From the NCBI GenBank assembly GCA_040754455.1, contig JBFMCP010000008.1, positions 1-30,429 on the forward strand: a stretch of DNA of 30,429 nt. The letters are read 5' to 3'. Position 1 is the first letter of the stretch. Each line of letters starts with the position of its first letter. Both the position numbers and the translations under genes were made by a program. Origin of the DNA: Nitrospirota bacterium (GTDB lineage Bacteria; Nitrospirota; Thermodesulfovibrionia; Thermodesulfovibrionales; Dissulfurispiraceae). The notes below the pieces were generated by a model that saw only the letters and a program-made list of their open reading frames with translations, was not told where the DNA came from and ran no database searches. Shown one piece after another: positions 4,386-10,192 of the stretch.

Positions 4386-5492
4386 CTGAAAGAACTCGTA
4401 CAGGAAATACTGCATCCTGCAGGCATTGTCATTAACGGGACAAATTCATATGATCTCCAGATCAGGGATGAGCGCGTGTTCAGGAGAATCCTGCGGGAAG
4501 GGAGCCTCGGTTTTGGCGAGGCATACATGGACGGCTGGTGGGAATGCGAACGCCTCGATGAGTTCTTCTGCAGGATCATGCCCTGCGAGCCCGAGCAGCG
4601 GCTCAGGAAAAATCCGAAACTGATCGCCTATCTTTTGAAATCCCGCCTGCTGAACGCTGGCAGCAAGGCAAAGGCATTTACGGTCGGTGAGCGGCATTAT
4701 GACCGAGGCAATGAGCTTTACCGGCATATGCTGGACCGCCGGATGGTCTACAGCTGCGCGTATTGGAAGGATGCACAGACGCTCGACGATGCGCAGGAGG
4801 CGAAGCTCGATCTGATCTGCCGGAAGATAGGTTTGCAGGAGGGCGACAGGGTGCTCGACATCGGCTGCGGCTGGGGGAGCTTTGCGAGGTATGCTGCAGA
4901 GAGGTACGGTGTGCATGTTGTCGGCATCACTGTCTCCCGCGAGCAGGCAGAGCTGGGCAGAGAACTCTGCAGCGGATTGCCGATCGAGATCAGGTTGCAG
5001 GATTATCGTGAGGTGAAGGAGGTCTTCGATCACATTGTCTCGGTCGGCATGTTCGAGCATGTGGGATACAAGAATTACCGTACCTATATGGAGGTAGTCC
5101 ACCGCTGCCTTAAAGAGGAGGGTCTTTTCCTTCTGCATACGATAGGGAGGAATTCTTCGCAAGTTGCGACGGATCAGTGGATCGATAAATATATATTCCC
5201 GAACTCGCTTGTCCCGTCGATGAAGCAGATCAGTGCTGCGGCAGAGCGGCTCTTTGTCATTGAGGATTGGCATAATTTCGGCCACTATTACGACCCGACT
5301 CTGATGGCGTGGTTCGGAAATTTCGACAGTAACTGGGACAAACTGAAAAAACAGTATGATGAACGGTTCTATCGCATGTGGAAATACTATCTTCTGAGCT
5401 GTGCCGGCTCCTTCAGAGCACGCTACTTACAGGTCTGGCAGATCGTCTTCTCGAAGAAGGGAGTGCCCGGAGGGTACCAGCCGGTCCGCTAG
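4386..5492 (+). CDS. cfa: Cyclopropane-fatty-acyl-phospholipid synthase (start uncertain)
   Basis: Motifs GSLGFGEAYMDGWW, HYD.GN, YSCAYW, LDIGCGWG (SAM binding), VGMFEHVG, YIFP. Cfa-like sequence (LVQEILHPAGIVING..YDLQIRD) continues in frame upstream of the track's GTG at 4476. CTG at 4386 is the proposed start. Confidence 0.92.
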   Translation: MKELVQEILHPAGIVINGTNSYDLQIRDERVFRRILREGSLGFGEAYMDGWWECERLDEFFCRIMPCEPEQRLRKNPKLIAYLLKSRLLNAGSKAKAFTVGERHYDRGNELYRHMLDRRMVYSCAYWKDAQTLDDAQEAKLDLICRKIGLQEGDRVLDIGCGWGSFARYAAERYGVHVVGITVSREQAELGRELCSGLPIEIRLQDYREVKEVFDHIVSVGMFEHVGYKNYRTYMEVVHRCLKEEGLFLLHTIGRNSSQVATDQWIDKYIFPNSLVPSMKQISAAAERLFVIEDWHNFGHYYDPTLMAWFGNFDSNWDKLKKQYDERFYRMWKYYLLSCAGSFRARYLQVWQIVFSKKGVPGGYQPVR

Positions 5493-5551: not shown

Positions 5552-6625
5552 ATGCAAGAGCTCGTAGAGCAGATACGGCGCAACTGTGCGATCTCCGATG
5601 CGAAATTCTGGGGATACTACTCGATCTGCGGCCTGCTCATGCGCTATCGTGAGCTCTACCGGAATGAGCAGGGGCTCAAACCGTGGGAGCGTATCGAGAA
5701 GGAGAGAATAACTGCATGGATAGAAGAACGGGAACGGTTGTGGAAGGGGCTTGAGCACGAAGATCTTCAGCAGTTGGTGATCGGAGGTGCTGCTATCCAC
5801 GCCTTCGATGTCAACAGGGTGAACACGCTCCTCAACCCCTCAGGCCTCGTTTACGGAAGCGGCTACAGTCTGTTCGGCAAGCCGACTTTTTTCCTCGCCG
5901 AACTCATTCAGAGAAGAGAGATCTACGACTACCGCGTCTACTATGCAGGAAGAGAGCTCTGCAGGGATCTTGCGGCCTCGCCGGCCATGCTCCAGGGCAG
6001 GTGCATCTATATCAGGCTCGAGGTGATGGAGTCGCTTCTCTGGGATAAGTTTCAGGAACTGGGGCCTGGAAAGCAGGGCAGCGCACTTGAAGAGATCTTT
6101 TCATTGTACGGCATAACCAAAGAGAAGGGAGCTCCTGAGGAGGACCCCGCGGCTATCGGCGGCAAGATCGAGAGTATGGCCCGTGATATTGCCGACCTCT
6201 TTGTGCTCCATGAAATCGGCGAGGCCTATGAGGATGACCATAGCGATGCATGGCTCGGGTTTCTCTCTGTCTGCAACGACAAGCATTGCGAGACCTACAC
6301 CCGCGGCATAAAAGACCTCATGGCAGACACCTCCGAGATGGGCCCCCTCAAGACGATCATTCGGAATAAGGATCTCTTTCTGTTGAAATGTTATATGGTA
6401 TTCCTCGACGGGATAAGAAAAACATTGTTCCCCGAAATCGGTGCGGCGCTGCGCCGTTTCAGCGAAACCGGCGACTGGTCCACGCTTGAACACGCGCGGA
6501 ACGAGGGATACCGAAAGGCCGGAGCGATGAAGAACACGCTGCTGCAGCTCCTTGCCAAAGAGAGCGGGGAGGGAGGACTCTCCGCTGCCAGGGATTATCT
6601 CAGGAACGTCTTCTCACGCGCATAA
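5552..6625 (+). CDS. Conserved hypothetical protein, Sfum_1244/DUF6866-like
   Basis: 357 aa. The N-terminal NCAISDA..WGYYSICGLLMRYRELY..E..L.PW and internal LHEIGE motifs recall this family (recognised from memory, not searched). Confidence 0.7.
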   Translation: MQELVEQIRRNCAISDAKFWGYYSICGLLMRYRELYRNEQGLKPWERIEKERITAWIEERERLWKGLEHEDLQQLVIGGAAIHAFDVNRVNTLLNPSGLVYGSGYSLFGKPTFFLAELIQRREIYDYRVYYAGRELCRDLAASPAMLQGRCIYIRLEVMESLLWDKFQELGPGKQGSALEEIFSLYGITKEKGAPEEDPAAIGGKIESMARDIADLFVLHEIGEAYEDDHSDAWLGFLSVCNDKHCETYTRGIKDLMADTSEMGPLKTIIRNKDLFLLKCYMVFLDGIRKTLFPEIGAALRRFSETGDWSTLEHARNEGYRKAGAMKNTLLQLLAKESGEGGLSAARDYLRNVFSRA

Positions 6626-6646
6626 GGTATACTGAGCAGAGGATAC

Positions 6647-6817
6647 TCACTTCTCCGGGACCTTCTCTTTTTCCTCCGTGGCTGTTTTTTCTTCTCGGGG
6701 TTCGGGTCTGCATACCGGGCAGTAAGGGTCTCCGAGGTCCAGGAGACAGACATGCCCTCATTCCGGACAGCAGACGCATTTCTCGATCGAGAACCCGCAT
6801 ACCGGACAGCGTTCCAT
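6647..6817 (-). CDS. Small Cys-rich protein with in-frame TGA at codon 20 (candidate selenoprotein, or nonsense pseudogene)
   Basis: Manual translation: MERCPVCGFSIEKCVCCPE[TGA]GHVCLLDLGDPYCPVCRPEPREEKTATEEKEKVPEK*. SD GGAGG 5 nt upstream of ATG 6817. The TGA is at 6758-6760. Not in the ORF track. Confidence 0.75.
6717..6757 (-). promoter_or_regulatory. Candidate bacterial SECIS hairpin
   Basis: Starts immediately after the UGA: lower stem GGGCA/UGCCC, upper stem GUCUCC/GGAGAC, apical loop UGGACCUC beginning 16 nt after the UGA with G at loop position 2. Confidence 0.55.
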
Positions 6818-6849
6818 ACAGTCCTCCCATGAATAGTGCTTTTGTCAAG

Positions 6850-7172
6850 CATAAAATTTCATCAACATATTTTTCTGATCTTCGTTACCATTCTTCTTTG
6901 AGTCCCACAGAGAACCTTCCATTCATCAGGGAATCAGCCATCCTCCCCTTCGGGCTCGCACTCAATGCGGCCCACCTTACTGATGCTGTTGGCACGCCCA
7001 TTCTCCTTGTCGGCCTCTCAGGACCAGGTCTGTTGTACGGGCTATGCCTAACCGTTGTTCCCTTCACAACAGGTTCATCATGTCCAGGACTGCTCCACAC
7101 CTTTTTCCTGACCTAAGCTTTTTCCCCTGAAAGGAAAAAGCCGCCTCCCCTCATGGATGAGGGTCTTAGCCG
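6850..7172 (-). ncRNA. Putative bridge/seekRNA of the IS1111-type element (boundaries approximate)
   Basis: Structured non-coding right end: hairpins 7117-7141 and 7148-7163, closed by CTAAG/CTTAG. It contains target-matching segments at 7086-7092 and 6975-6980. Confidence 0.6.
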
Positions 7173-7173
7173 T

Positions 7174-8196
7174 TCACCTCGTGCTCAGCAGCCGATAATC
7201 ATACTGCCGTCTGTCACGAAGGACGTAAAACATGATCTGTATCAGCGCAAGCCCAACCAGGGCCGTCTTAAACCCCCGTCGCTTTGCTACCTGCTCATGC
7301 CACACCCTTAAAGGTCTGCTCTCTGCACTCTTGCTCCTAAGCACCGCATGCGCCCCCTGTTTGACCACCCCCCTGACCTCGCTACGCTCCTCCCTGGTGA
7401 TATGCCCATACTCCGTCCGCTCTCTGCTGCTCCTCACAGAAGGCACCAATCCGCAGTAGCTGGTCAGTTTCTTTGCACTGCCAAACCTCTTTACGGTATC
7501 TATGGCCGCATAGATCGTCTTGGAGGCTACCTCTCCCACCCCAGGAACACTCTTCAGCAGCTCTATTTCGTTGTTCTTGTATTTGCCGATCACTTCATCC
7601 AACTGCCCACGCTCTCTGAGCAGTTCTTCGATGGATCTCCGGTAGCTCTCTATCACCGGCTTTAAGTGCAGAGGGATATCTTTGCTCTTCTTCAGCTCTT
7701 CAAATATCTCTCCATCACGGAAGGCCTCGGCTTTCAGCTTTACCCCCTCCTGCCTCAATAATCCCCTCAGTTGGTTCATCAGGCTCGTGGCGCTCTTTAC
7801 CAACTGCTGCCGTGCCCTCAACAGGTCTCTTAGCTCTCTGATGTCGCCTTCTGCCATGTGTATCTTCTCCGGTAATCCCTCTATCCTCAGCAACTCCGCC
7901 AATACCTTCGCATCTACTTTATCGGTCTTCCGCTTCGTCTCGGCGATCAGCTTCACTTTGTTGGGATTCACTACATATACCCCTACCCCCATCTTCGTGA
8001 GTAGATCGTATATCCATCGACTGTGCCCTCCGGCCTCTAACGCTACTTCTATAACCTTGTCTTTCCATTTCCTGAGGTATCCCCGGTATCCTTCTTTGTC
8101 CGTCGGGATCTCTTTGCTCTCTACCTTCCTGCCCCTCCGGTCAACCACATACACATAACTGCTCTTGCTTGCTACATCCAATCCCGCATAGTACAT
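7174..8196 (-). CDS. IS110-family DEDD transposase/recombinase
   Basis: N-terminal GLDV, ALEAGG and KTDKVDA (DEDD RuvC-like); C-terminal SVPGVG..F.S.KKL.SYCGLVP...SS; SD GGGGAG. Confidence 0.95.
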   Translation of the reverse strand: MYYAGLDVASKSSYVYVVDRRGRKVESKEIPTDKEGYRGYLRKWKDKVIEVALEAGGHSRWIYDLLTKMGVGVYVVNPNKVKLIAETKRKTDKVDAKVLAELLRIEGLPEKIHMAEGDIRELRDLLRARQQLVKSATSLMNQLRGLLRQEGVKLKAEAFRDGEIFEELKKSKDIPLHLKPVIESYRRSIEELLRERGQLDEVIGKYKNNEIELLKSVPGVGEVASKTIYAAIDTVKRFGSAKKLTSYCGLVPSVRSSRERTEYGHITREERSEVRGVVKQGAHAVLRSKSAESRPLRVWHEQVAKRRGFKTALVGLALIQIMFYVLRDRRQYDYRLLSTR

Positions 8197-8485
8197 TTCG
8201 GCTCCCCTCTCCTCATCGTATTTACTTGACTCAGGGTAGTACTATTCAGGGATGTTGTCAGCCTCTACTGCTATTCATAGTATCTCCTTACCAGGAAATC
8301 CGAAACTCCAAGCATGAAATTCCAGGCGCGCACCTCTAACGGATGAAAGAATTCCAATGCGTAACTAAACTTACTTAAATTGTAGTAGCAAATCGCATAA
8401 AAGAAAATATTCTGCAGTGCCCCCTCCCGCCTTTACTCACGTATGCATCTTTAAAAAGGCAAGTTCTGCGTAGGGCATAGACGGC

Positions 8486-10192
8486 TTAATGTATGACCCA
8501 ATCGCTTTTTTGTATCAGTTCGGGAGTAGGGCCGGAGGTCAACTGGACGATGTAGCAGCCCTTTGCGGCATAGCGCTGTCCGGGGCCGAAGCTTACCCGT
8601 GGATAGACAGCAATGGAATAGGTTTGATCATTGGCCATATCAATCACATCGAGGAAGTAGTCGCGGTAGAAATCGCTCTGCATCATCATGAGCGCCTCGG
8701 AAATCATCCAGCCGACAAAATACATCCTGGATTGAATGGCGAAATTGGTGACCGGGATCTTTTTGATCCTGAGCCAGTTCTCTATGACGAGCCTGCTCCG
8801 GTGCTTGTCCCGCGGCAGACGGTAAGGGTAAGCGATATAGGTGAACGGGCGGATACGTTCCGGAACTGCGGAGAGCGCAGTGTCGAGCAGGCTTGCTGCC
8901 ATGAAGACCATTTTCGGTTTATGGGGGCTCTTAGCAAGCGCTGCGATGGTATCGAGATCTTTCGGCGAGAGCCATACCACCAGAATCGCTGCAGGATATG
9001 TGTCAGCCAGCTTGCTCCAGAATTCCGTGGTGGCCGTCTCTCCGGGAGAGAGAGCTCTGTCTTCGGGCAGGGGGAGGCCGAGCTTTCTCCTCGTCTCTCT
9101 GAAGGCCCTTGAAAGAACCATGCCCTCACGGGTATTTCGAAATACCTGAATGACTGGAACATCTGCCGGCAGATCCGCTAAGGAGCGGAGATACCGCGCC
9201 ACGGCTTCCCCTTCCTGATAAAGACCCTTGGAGAAATAGAGCGTATACCAATCCGTCTCCGTTATTACCGGGTAGTCGGTGATAGGAAAGATGCAGGGGA
9301 TTTTCTGCTGTTCGCAGAACCGGTGTATGGGGTCCCACCCGAGTGTCGTGATGCCTCCAGCAAGGGCAAATACCGGCTCTTTTTTGTAATAGGCCTCAAG
9401 CTGGCTCTGCCAGGTTTCGGGTGCGCCTTTCAATTCCCATGTCGACAGTGCGATTTTGCGGTAGGAGCTGTACATCTCTTCAAGGAAGGGGCCTCCGTGC
9501 TTCGCCCGTTTTTCCTGATGTCTCGACTGGGATGTCCTGTCACGAAAGTATGCCGTGAGGGGAGCAAGCATCGCTTCACGGTCCTTTTGCGGCACCTCAT
9601 CGGTAATGACAGTAGCGAAACGGAGTGTTGTGTCTGTTACACCGGGAGAAAACTCGGCGGAAAGATTTTTCAGGTAAAATACCATGATCTCCATGTCGCG
9701 TTCGGAGAGCATGTAACGCGGCATGATGTCGTTGAGCTTCCTGCCTTCCGGATCCACTCCTGCCAGGAGCGCCATCGCAAGCGATGTATCGGTGTAAGCC
9801 GGCCGTATATCGCCGCCCGAATATTCTTTGGGAAGCTGCTCTTTGGGGGCGCCGATCACTCCCTGTCCACGGGGCAGGGGCTTATAGAGTGCCGCGCCGT
9901 TCGTAGGCGGAGTAAAGACCGTACCTTCGTTCGATCCCAGGCCGCTCCTGAGATGGCAGCTCACACAGGTGAACATCGTCCCCTCAACCGGGATATCCCC
10001 TTCGACAACTGCCTGCATGGGTTCACCGGAAGGCAGGATCCCCTCACGGTACATTCTCTCGCCGAGCCTCAATGCCTCGTCCCTGGAGAACCCTGCAATG
10101 AGATCTCCTGCCTCTGCCGCAGTGGTCCATAGGGCGATCACTACCGGCAGGAGCATGATGCAACGCTGGAGAGAAGCGGGGATCCTGATCAT
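8486..10192 (-). CDS. Exported cytochrome c / periplasmic-binding-protein (type I, branched-chain-like) fusion
   Basis: Signal peptide, single CVSCH and a distal MPRY, followed by a PBP1-like region (PVFALAGG..W.PIH.FCE..KIPCIFP). Start moved to ATG 10192, which overlaps the SCO stop (ATGA). Confidence 0.8.
   Translation of the reverse strand: MIRIPASLQRCIMLLPVVIALWTTAAEAGDLIAGFSRDEALRLGERMYREGILPSGEPMQAVVEGDIPVEGTMFTCVSCHLRSGLGSNEGTVFTPPTNGAALYKPLPRGQGVIGAPKEQLPKEYSGGDIRPAYTDTSLAMALLAGVDPEGRKLNDIMPRYMLSERDMEIMVFYLKNLSAEFSPGVTDTTLRFATVITDEVPQKDREAMLAPLTAYFRDRTSQSRHQEKRAKHGGPFLEEMYSSYRKIALSTWELKGAPETWQSQLEAYYKKEPVFALAGGITTLGWDPIHRFCEQQKIPCIFPITDYPVITETDWYTLYFSKGLYQEGEAVARYLRSLADLPADVPVIQVFRNTREGMVLSRAFRETRRKLGLPLPEDRALSPGETATTEFWSKLADTYPAAILVVWLSPKDLDTIAALAKSPHKPKMVFMAASLLDTALSAVPERIRPFTYIAYPYRLPRDKHRSRLVIENWLRIKKIPVTNFAIQSRMYFVGWMISEALMMMQSDFYRDYFLDVIDMANDQTYSIAVYPRVSFGPGQRYAAKGCYIVQLTSGPTPELIQKSDWVIH

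Follow-up and report, generated by a model that had tools for sequence, protein, structure and literature searches.

A cysteine-rich mini-protein gene with an in-frame TGA

Analysis of the window (the whole stretch of 30,429 nt studied here) revealed a short minus-strand gene that belongs to a conserved family of Cys-rich mini-proteins and carries TGA at codon 20, where nearly all of its relatives encode Cys. Reading of this UGA as selenocysteine (Sec) is plausible, with about as much weight for it as against it, and is slightly favoured over a nonsense allele. The frame reads MERCPVCGFSIEKCVCCPE-TGA-GHVCLLDLGDPYCPVCRPEPREEKTATEEKEKVPEK, followed by a terminal TGA, leaving 21 nt between its stop and the end of the convergently oriented gene at 5552-6625 (Table 1). 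Besides the TGA position, the mini-protein has eight Cys and two intact CPVC motifs. Its three CxxC knuckles are near copies of one another at the DNA level, knuckle 2 (TGTCCGGAATGAGGG) differing from knuckle 1 (TGTCCGGTATGCGGG) at two bases. No second lesion was found in the mini-gene, be it a further stop, a frameshift, a lost start or Shine-Dalgarno sequence, or a lost conserved residue; such a lesion-free gene is also expected of a very recent nonsense allele. The details given by an earlier, sequence-only reading of this DNA (the Shine-Dalgarno sequence, the ATG at 6817, the TGA at 6758-6760, the frame open to 6647 and the 21-nt gap) were all correct, and the two CPVC motifs and eight Cys that it placed around the TGA can be read directly from the frame.

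Table 1. Positions of the features discussed in the text. Entries with a locus label refer to other genomic loci, all others to the window.
Feature	Position	Strand	Remarks
Mini-protein gene	6647..6817	-	56 codons; in-frame TGA is codon 20; terminal TGA at 6647-6649; full-length homology
Shine-Dalgarno sequence GGGAGG	6823..6828	-	Read directly from the sequence; 5-nt spacer ACTGT before the ATG at 6817-6815
In-frame TGA, codon 20	6758..6760	-	Aligned with the near-invariant family Cys20; candidate Sec codon or nonsense codon
Knuckle 1, C4-P-V-C7	6797..6808	-	C4 and C7 invariant in alignments A1 and A2
Knuckle 2, C17-P-E-(TGA)20	6758..6769	-	Counterpart in alignment: first CxxC in rubrerythrin's rubredoxin-like domain
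Knuckle 3, C33-P-V-C36	6710..6721	-	12 residues beyond position 20
Stem-loop, 41 nt	6717..6757	-	Begins at the first base past the TGA; also in Cys forms
DUF6866 gene ('Sfum_1244 family protein')	5552..6625	+	Convergent neighbour; adjoins the mini-gene in 0 of 60 other loci
Cyclopropane-fatty-acyl-phospholipid (CFA) synthase	4476-5492	+	Beside the DUF6866 gene
IS110-family transposase	7174..8196	-	DEDD_Tnp_IS110 and Transposase_20; 356 nt upstream of the mini-gene, same orientation
NapC/NirT-type multihaem cytochrome c, 504 aa	2096-3610	-	Side check
TadA fusion	L005:9947-10597		In frame with Cys-rich module
TadA fusion	L018:6660-7262		In frame with Cys-rich module
TadA fusion	L019:3812-4402		In frame with Cys-rich module
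TadA fusion	L020:9989-10570		In frame with Cys-rich module
Damaged copy	L013:6304-6447		Internal stop
Damaged copy	L056:5376-5477		Stop and Cys4-to-Gly (first Cys lost)
Damaged copy	L057:5185-5325		Frameshift near the 3' end

Extent, conservation and annotation of the family

With U read as C, the peptide gave 30 matches at E ≤ 1e-3 in a library of 1.84 billion representative proteins, approximately 26 of which were proteins of 50–86 aa. The best match, P0003 (E = 8e-16, 67% identity), aligned residues 1–52 with residues 1–52 and spanned the TGA. Because the matches are full-length and run across the TGA, the resemblance of the ORF to these proteins is more than chance and the gene is genuine, which bears out the earlier proposal of an unannotated Cys-rich mini-protein gene. 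Two alignments, A1 with 27 and A2 with 63 sequences, yielded the consensus CPVC-x6-C[IV]CCPECGHxCxLDxGExYCPVCxPE, in which C4, C7, C16, C24 and C36 are invariant and C14, C17, C20, G21, H22, G29, C33, P34, V35 and P38 are conserved to at least 90%. The window copy retains all of these residues, including every one downstream of the TGA, with the TGA itself replacing C20. Both alignments place the TGA at a near-invariant Cys of a CPxCG knuckle and show a Cys/TGA pair with both flanks conserved; Cys was present at column 20 in 60 of the 63 database proteins. Such a pair with conserved flanks is described as the classical selenoprotein criterion in the accessible part of PMC13188914.

No Pfam family scored above its gathering threshold with the window protein, the best reaching 13.9 bits against a cut-off of 25. 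Below threshold, Zn_Ribbon_1, RUBY_RBDX and DZR were matched by 26, 19 and 16 of the 63 members, respectively. NCBIfam returned nothing meaningful: no selenoprotein model was among the 25 families listed, of 29, for the 63 members at E ≤ 1, nor among the matches of six members at E ≤ 10. All source names were 'hypothetical protein', except for one JGI entry named 'rubrerythrin'. Judged by sequence comparison, this is a conserved mini-protein family of approximately 50–60 aa that has neither a name nor a Pfam or NCBIfam model. No description of it was found in Pfam, in NCBIfam or in a literature search that included the accessible parts of PMC13188914, PMC12013277 and PMC13510729. The statement of the sequence-only reading that no described family fits the protein accordingly stands, as far as Pfam and NCBIfam models are concerned.

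That gene callers would miss such a gene had also been anticipated, and the window copy is indeed absent from the protein collection. A match of at least 90% was present among the retrieved proteins for only 9 of the 60 intact genomic copies of the mini-gene, all Cys forms, which indicates that the family is under-called by annotation. A single-sequence word search with the mini-protein gave no match, nor did searches against plasmids by blastn (positions 6400-8400) and tblastn (the peptide).

Metal-site motifs and fold comparison

The spacing C17xxC20-x12-C33xxC36 of the family is rubredoxin-like. When the family profile was compared with PDB sequences, C17/C20 and C33/C36 fell on both CxxC pairs of the rubrerythrin-type protein 4tpu_A (E = 0.006), and the same Cys pairs fell on the zinc ribbon of the archaeal RNA-polymerase subunit B 3qqc_A (E = 0.004). 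In these solved rubrerythrin-type and RNA-polymerase B proteins, the CxxC Cys bind the metal. From this likeness we infer a rubredoxin/zinc-ribbon-type site in the C-terminal half (C17xxC20-x12-C33xxC36) that would bind metal; a second site, interleaved with it, is probably formed by C4, C7, C14, C16, H22 and C24. Position 20 has the look of a structural ligand to the metal, a point counted against Sec.

A test of a rubredoxin/zinc-ribbon fold that asked for both the CxxC spacing and a Pfam score above the gathering threshold was negative: the spacing is present, but the score (13.9 vs. 25 bits) stays below the threshold. The AF2 model had a pLDDT of 69.9 and no regular secondary structure, and Foldseek against the PDB gave no match at E ≤ 0.001; mediocre models without structural matches are usual for tiny metal-knuckle proteins. 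The CxxC-x12-CxxC spacing is common to the family and to the RUBY_RBDX domain of rubrerythrin (PF21349), Zn_Ribbon_1 (PF13240) and DZR (PF12773). In contrast to RUBY_RBDX and the zinc ribbons, the family has five extra conserved ligands (C4, C7, C14, C16 and C24) plus H22, and it is a stand-alone protein of 50–60 aa. We know of no Sec form of the RUBY_RBDX, Zn_Ribbon_1 or DZR domains.

Genomic loci and fusion to TadA

A scan of one genome per species with the back-translated motif CC[PET][EG]CGHxC yielded 60 loci, nearly all of them in MAGs of Nitrospirota/Thermodesulfovibrionia or Deltaproteobacteria/Thermodesulfobacteriota. In three of the 60, the copy is damaged (Table 1). Another of the 60 copies (L047:10001-10129) is on a MAG contig that bears the label of a Bathyarchaeia archaeon, and had a long branch and an odd composition in the tree; its archaeal placement could be due to mis-binning or gene transfer.

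Clustering was applied to ORFs lying up to 6 kb from each copy, in 61 regions that included the window. The commonest neighbours were an HD plus OB-fold protein (30 loci), an NAD-epimerase (25) and a UDG-family glycosylase (17), followed by a CMD/AhpD-like protein (9), archease (7) and RtcB (6). Since the HD plus OB-fold, epimerase and UDG genes are convergent to the mini-gene in every locus, they provide no evidence of an operon.

An in-frame fusion of a 40-residue Cys-rich module to a TadA-type deaminase (PF00383/PF14437) was found in four of the 60 loci (Table 1) and in P0018, and P0055 carries a precomputed PF00383 assignment. Downstream of the TadA-fusion loci lie tRNA-Ser(CGA) and tRNA-Ser(GGA), and in L018 and L019 a tRNA-Arg(ACG) gene lies upstream of the fusion gene; tRNA-Arg(ACG) is the substrate of TadA. 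The N-terminal extension of TadA in some Nitrospirota is the same 40-residue Cys-rich module as the window protein. Unlike the fused module, that of the window stands alone, with no tadA nearby. The gene fusion suggests a partner for the mini-protein, without giving its function. Together with the nucleic-acid-processing neighbours, the fusions point away from the redox chemistry that is typical of Sec.

Variants at column 20

The count at column 20 covered 63 database proteins, leaving out the window's own entries P0001 and P0002 and with P0063 unmatched. The three proteins without Cys have W (P0022 and P0043) or R (P0008). Cluster mates on second contigs repeat both the W (P0070) and the R (P0071); these variants are therefore not single-read errors. 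W was not among the departures at the other Cys columns (D, G, H, Y and G), and column 20 is the sole Cys column that bears it. Both W (TGG) and R (CGA/AGA) are one step away from TGA. P0070 contains two extra W in a tail that is not protein-like, and P0022 ends in W. This pattern would be expected if a gene caller had read TGA as Trp on short JGI contigs: the metagenome mode of Prodigal tries code-4 models at 42–47% G+C, and the nearest Cys-form loci have a G+C content of 42–47%. The R variant indicates that the position can be lost. In a tree of 119 core sequences over 39 columns, from which column 20 was left out, the non-Cys forms at this position need four changes; a single origin is also compatible with the tree.

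The window copy is the one verified TGA form of the family, and none occurred in the 60 loci, for which the search pattern excluded TGA. The sequence-only reading had named close homologues with uniform TGC or TGT as evidence against a Sec codon. Formally, all 60 loci do have TGC or TGT at column 20, but this result is uninformative because the scan pattern itself required Cys there, and the check is void. The TGA-spanning frames listed for the loci, 420 in all, were too noisy to be of use. In a collection of 5.8 billion clusters, no Cys form exceeded 75% identity to the window protein, although conspecific assemblies were included. The argument that the relatives must then carry TGA was set aside as weak, since only 9 of 60 Cys forms were matched at 90% or more.

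Stem-loop downstream of the TGA

The stem-loop that follows the TGA has a lower stem GGGCA/UGCCC, an upper stem GUCUCC/GGAGAC and an 8-nt loop, UGGACCUC, that starts 16 nt past the TGA, a geometry that would suit a SECIS element. The 42 nt past codon 20 folded at −18.7 kcal/mol, the best value among the 56 codon positions and the nine Cys-column codons of the gene (next best, −14.1). After 78 Cys codons of the other genes in the window, folding energies averaged −8.5 (sd 3.7), and 2 of the 78 reached −17.2 or below. Within the family, where the 42-nt folds had a mean of −12.3 (sd 3.3), the window copy ranked second of 61; L036, a TGC form, folded better (−19.3) with the same architecture. With a 60-nt fold the window copy ranked only 18th of 61, and compared with shuffled versions of its sequence it reached a z-score of −0.5.

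The covariation score over 59 sequences was 0.099, compared to 0.129–0.141 in five of six slid controls and 0.056 in the sixth. The lower helix, which lies at the invariant Gly-His and Cys-Pro codons, was paired in 83% of cells and the upper helix in 49%, and no association was found between the third base of Gly21 and the third base of Cys33. A stem-loop past codon 20 (codons 21–34) closed by GGNCA/UGYCC recurs in many Cys forms, in most of L001–L059. It shows no covariation and thus probably just follows from the conserved Gly-His and Cys-Pro codons, and its presence is not confined to the TGA form. A count of formed pairs (13 of 13 in the window) was rejected as biased because the structure had been derived from the window.

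Setting of the window copy and conspecific contigs

The setting of the mini-gene is unique among the 61 regions, with the genes for DUF6866 and CFA synthase on one side and the IS110 transposase on the other. The flanks of the IS110 transposase gene extend over 6818-7173 and 8197-8485, and two strong hairpins lie just past the transposase stop (~7115-7165). Two other conspecific contigs span the locus. On the 191,569-nt contig, identities to the window proteins were 99.9% for DnaE, 99.7% for RodA, 97.6% for a 336-aa protein and 94.7% for DUF6866; on the 14,848-nt contig they were 99.1–99.7%. The IS110 transposase has no cluster member on either of these contigs, and its insertion thus looks strain-private and recent.

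The window record is a contig of a Nitrospirota MAG, and the cluster mates of its MreB bear names such as Thermodesulfovibrionales and Dissulfurispiraceae. Its other 21 genes are intact, several of them being 99.7–99.9% identical over the full length to conspecific proteins, and many of the window proteins are also listed, with identical sequence, from a second source. TGA serves as an ordinary stop in 6 of the 21 window genes, which shows that the genome is not recoded. A tRNA search of the window found no tRNA at all and hence no tRNA-Sec, and there was none in the 60 loci either. No sel genes were found among the window ORFs (30 kb), and Rfam gave no match for the whole window at gathering thresholds or for 6400-8700 at E-value thresholds. 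The consecutive accessions MFZ5997843 to MFZ5997847 were rejected as a basis for inferring the gene content of a conspecific MAG.

Proposed selenocysteine decoding and alternative explanations

In the proposed mechanism, the ORF at 6817-6647 (minus strand) would be a functional member of a family with nine Cys and one His in anaerobic Nitrospirota and Desulfobacterota. Sec at its UGA codon 20 would either complete a Cys3Sec metal centre or form a redox-active CxxU. The stem-loop directly past the UGA, with the apical loop 16 nt downstream, would serve in decoding. Through pairing of the Gly-His with the Cys-Pro codons, this hairpin would largely pre-exist in the family, and SelB could rescue a TGY-to-TGA change at a single Cys codon of the gene, number 20. 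What has been observed is the family itself, its Cys/TGA pair, the conservation of the flanks and the presence of the hairpin; what we infer is Sec decoding, metal binding and a role of the hairpin. Among the points counted for Sec are the Cys/TGA pair with conserved flanks, the W and R variants of column 20, and the fact that, among 30 one-step routes to a stop in the ORF, a single one hits codon 20, the codon with the best SECIS-like fold.

Related cases are described in the accessible parts of the literature. A Sec-type enzyme is reported in Nitrospirota, mainly Thermodesulfovibrionia (PMC13510729), and zinc-ribbon or other metal-binding selenoproteins tabulated in PMC13188914 include the FmdB family with UxxU, YHS, CopZ-like proteins and MbdU. 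Three new selenoprotein families with Cys homologues were accepted without a TGA homologue (PMC12013277). The FmdB-family zinc-ribbon 'putative regulatory protein' (TIGR02605) is likewise small and has Sec for the Cys of a CxxC knuckle (PMC13188914), as proposed here; the window protein differs from it in having one candidate Sec instead of two and another Cys pattern. NF041197 (OS_HP3 / hypothetical protein DW) is a small selenoprotein with two CXXC and a Sec form (PMC13188914; PMC12013277), but the Sec motif given for it in the accessible parts of these sources is RxU or GxU, whereas that of the window protein would be CPxU. Neither the TIGR02605 nor the NF041197 model matched six members at E ≤ 10, and neither was among the 25 listed families, of 29 in all, that matched the 63 members at E ≤ 1. 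With regard to the candidate selenoprotein family proposed by the sequence-only reading, the gene, the family and the Cys/TGA pair have been substantiated; Sec decoding has not, since there is a single verified TGA form and the hairpin is also found in Cys forms.

The main competitor is a nonsense allele, in which a recent TGC-to-TGA change (C to A) would truncate the protein to 19 residues, with no time yet for decay, in a gene that is dispensable or silenced by the IS110 element; we regard this as a substantial possibility, though somewhat short of an even chance. The position of the TGA, which the earlier reading had found telling, is weak evidence alone in such a Cys-rich gene: TGA at a Cys codon accounts for 9 of the 30 one-step routes to any stop, and for 9 of the 12 that end in TGA. 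The near identity of knuckle 2 to knuckle 1, only two bases apart, is counted on the same side, as are the three broken copies among 60 in other MAGs and the recent insertion of the IS110 transposase 356 nt upstream. Further, the hairpin would be a by-product of Gly-His and Cys-Pro codons common to the Cys forms, and the R and W variants may mean that column 20 holds the least-constrained Cys. Against a nonsense allele stands that the one route of 30 that was taken leads to the codon with the best SECIS-like fold and with the W, W and R variants, and that the Shine-Dalgarno sequence and the start are intact and a second lesion is missing. The lack of a conspecific Cys form in the protein collection points the same way, weakly, given that only 9 of 60 Cys forms were matched at 90% or more.

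An assembly or base-call error concealing a true TGC codon is very improbable. The record is indeed a MAG contig, and MAG copies elsewhere contain stops and frameshifts, but the 21 other window genes are intact, with several 99.7–99.9% identical to conspecific proteins and many identical in a second source, and a random error would have had to produce one particular change among the 513 that the ORF allows. We give similarly little credence to leaky read-through by a near-cognate tRNA (Trp or Cys), which would produce a 19-aa peptide and a little full-length protein without selenium. The W variants would show that Trp occurs naturally at column 20, if their codons are TGG, and the hairpin directly past the stop could slow termination; however, this lineage offers no evidence of such a mechanism, and the 19-aa fragment would be without 5 of the 10 conserved ligand residues.

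Returning to Sec decoding, a broader and more tentative idea, to which we would assign about one chance in three, is that codon 20 is a recurrent switch point between Cys and Sec, enabled by the ready-made hairpin and rescue by SelB. The TGA of the window, the two W lineages and the one R lineage would then all be traces of the TGA state, and the proteins would have selenolate rubredoxin/zinc-ribbon centres and work with TadA. If codon 20 is read as Sec, the mini-protein would found a new selenoprotein family of 56 residues with Sec as a ligand in a Cys4 rubredoxin/zinc-ribbon site, a class for which there are only predicted precedents. It would also offer a compact natural system for the study of selenolate-metal centres and of how a coding-region hairpin may seed the acquisition of Sec. 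Should the TGA prove to be a nonsense allele, there would be nothing unusual in the finding. Independently of Sec, an unannotated and widely conserved mini-protein family is defined in sulfur-cycling Nitrospirota and Desulfobacterota, and gene fusion links this family to TadA.

Further observations in the window

Out-of-frame ORFs of 85, 82 and 95 aa, through which codon 20 might be read in conspecific assemblies, are absent from the protein collection, and the 85-aa ORF is without a homologue there. In this overlapping 85-aa frame, the TGA would read RNEGM. Because multihaem selenoenzymes are known in this bacterial class, the multihaem cytochrome c gene was checked for an in-frame TGA with PMC13510729 in view; it had none. 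The CFA synthase is 368 aa long in the public record, compared to 338 aa for the ORF counted from the first ATG, GTG or TTG.
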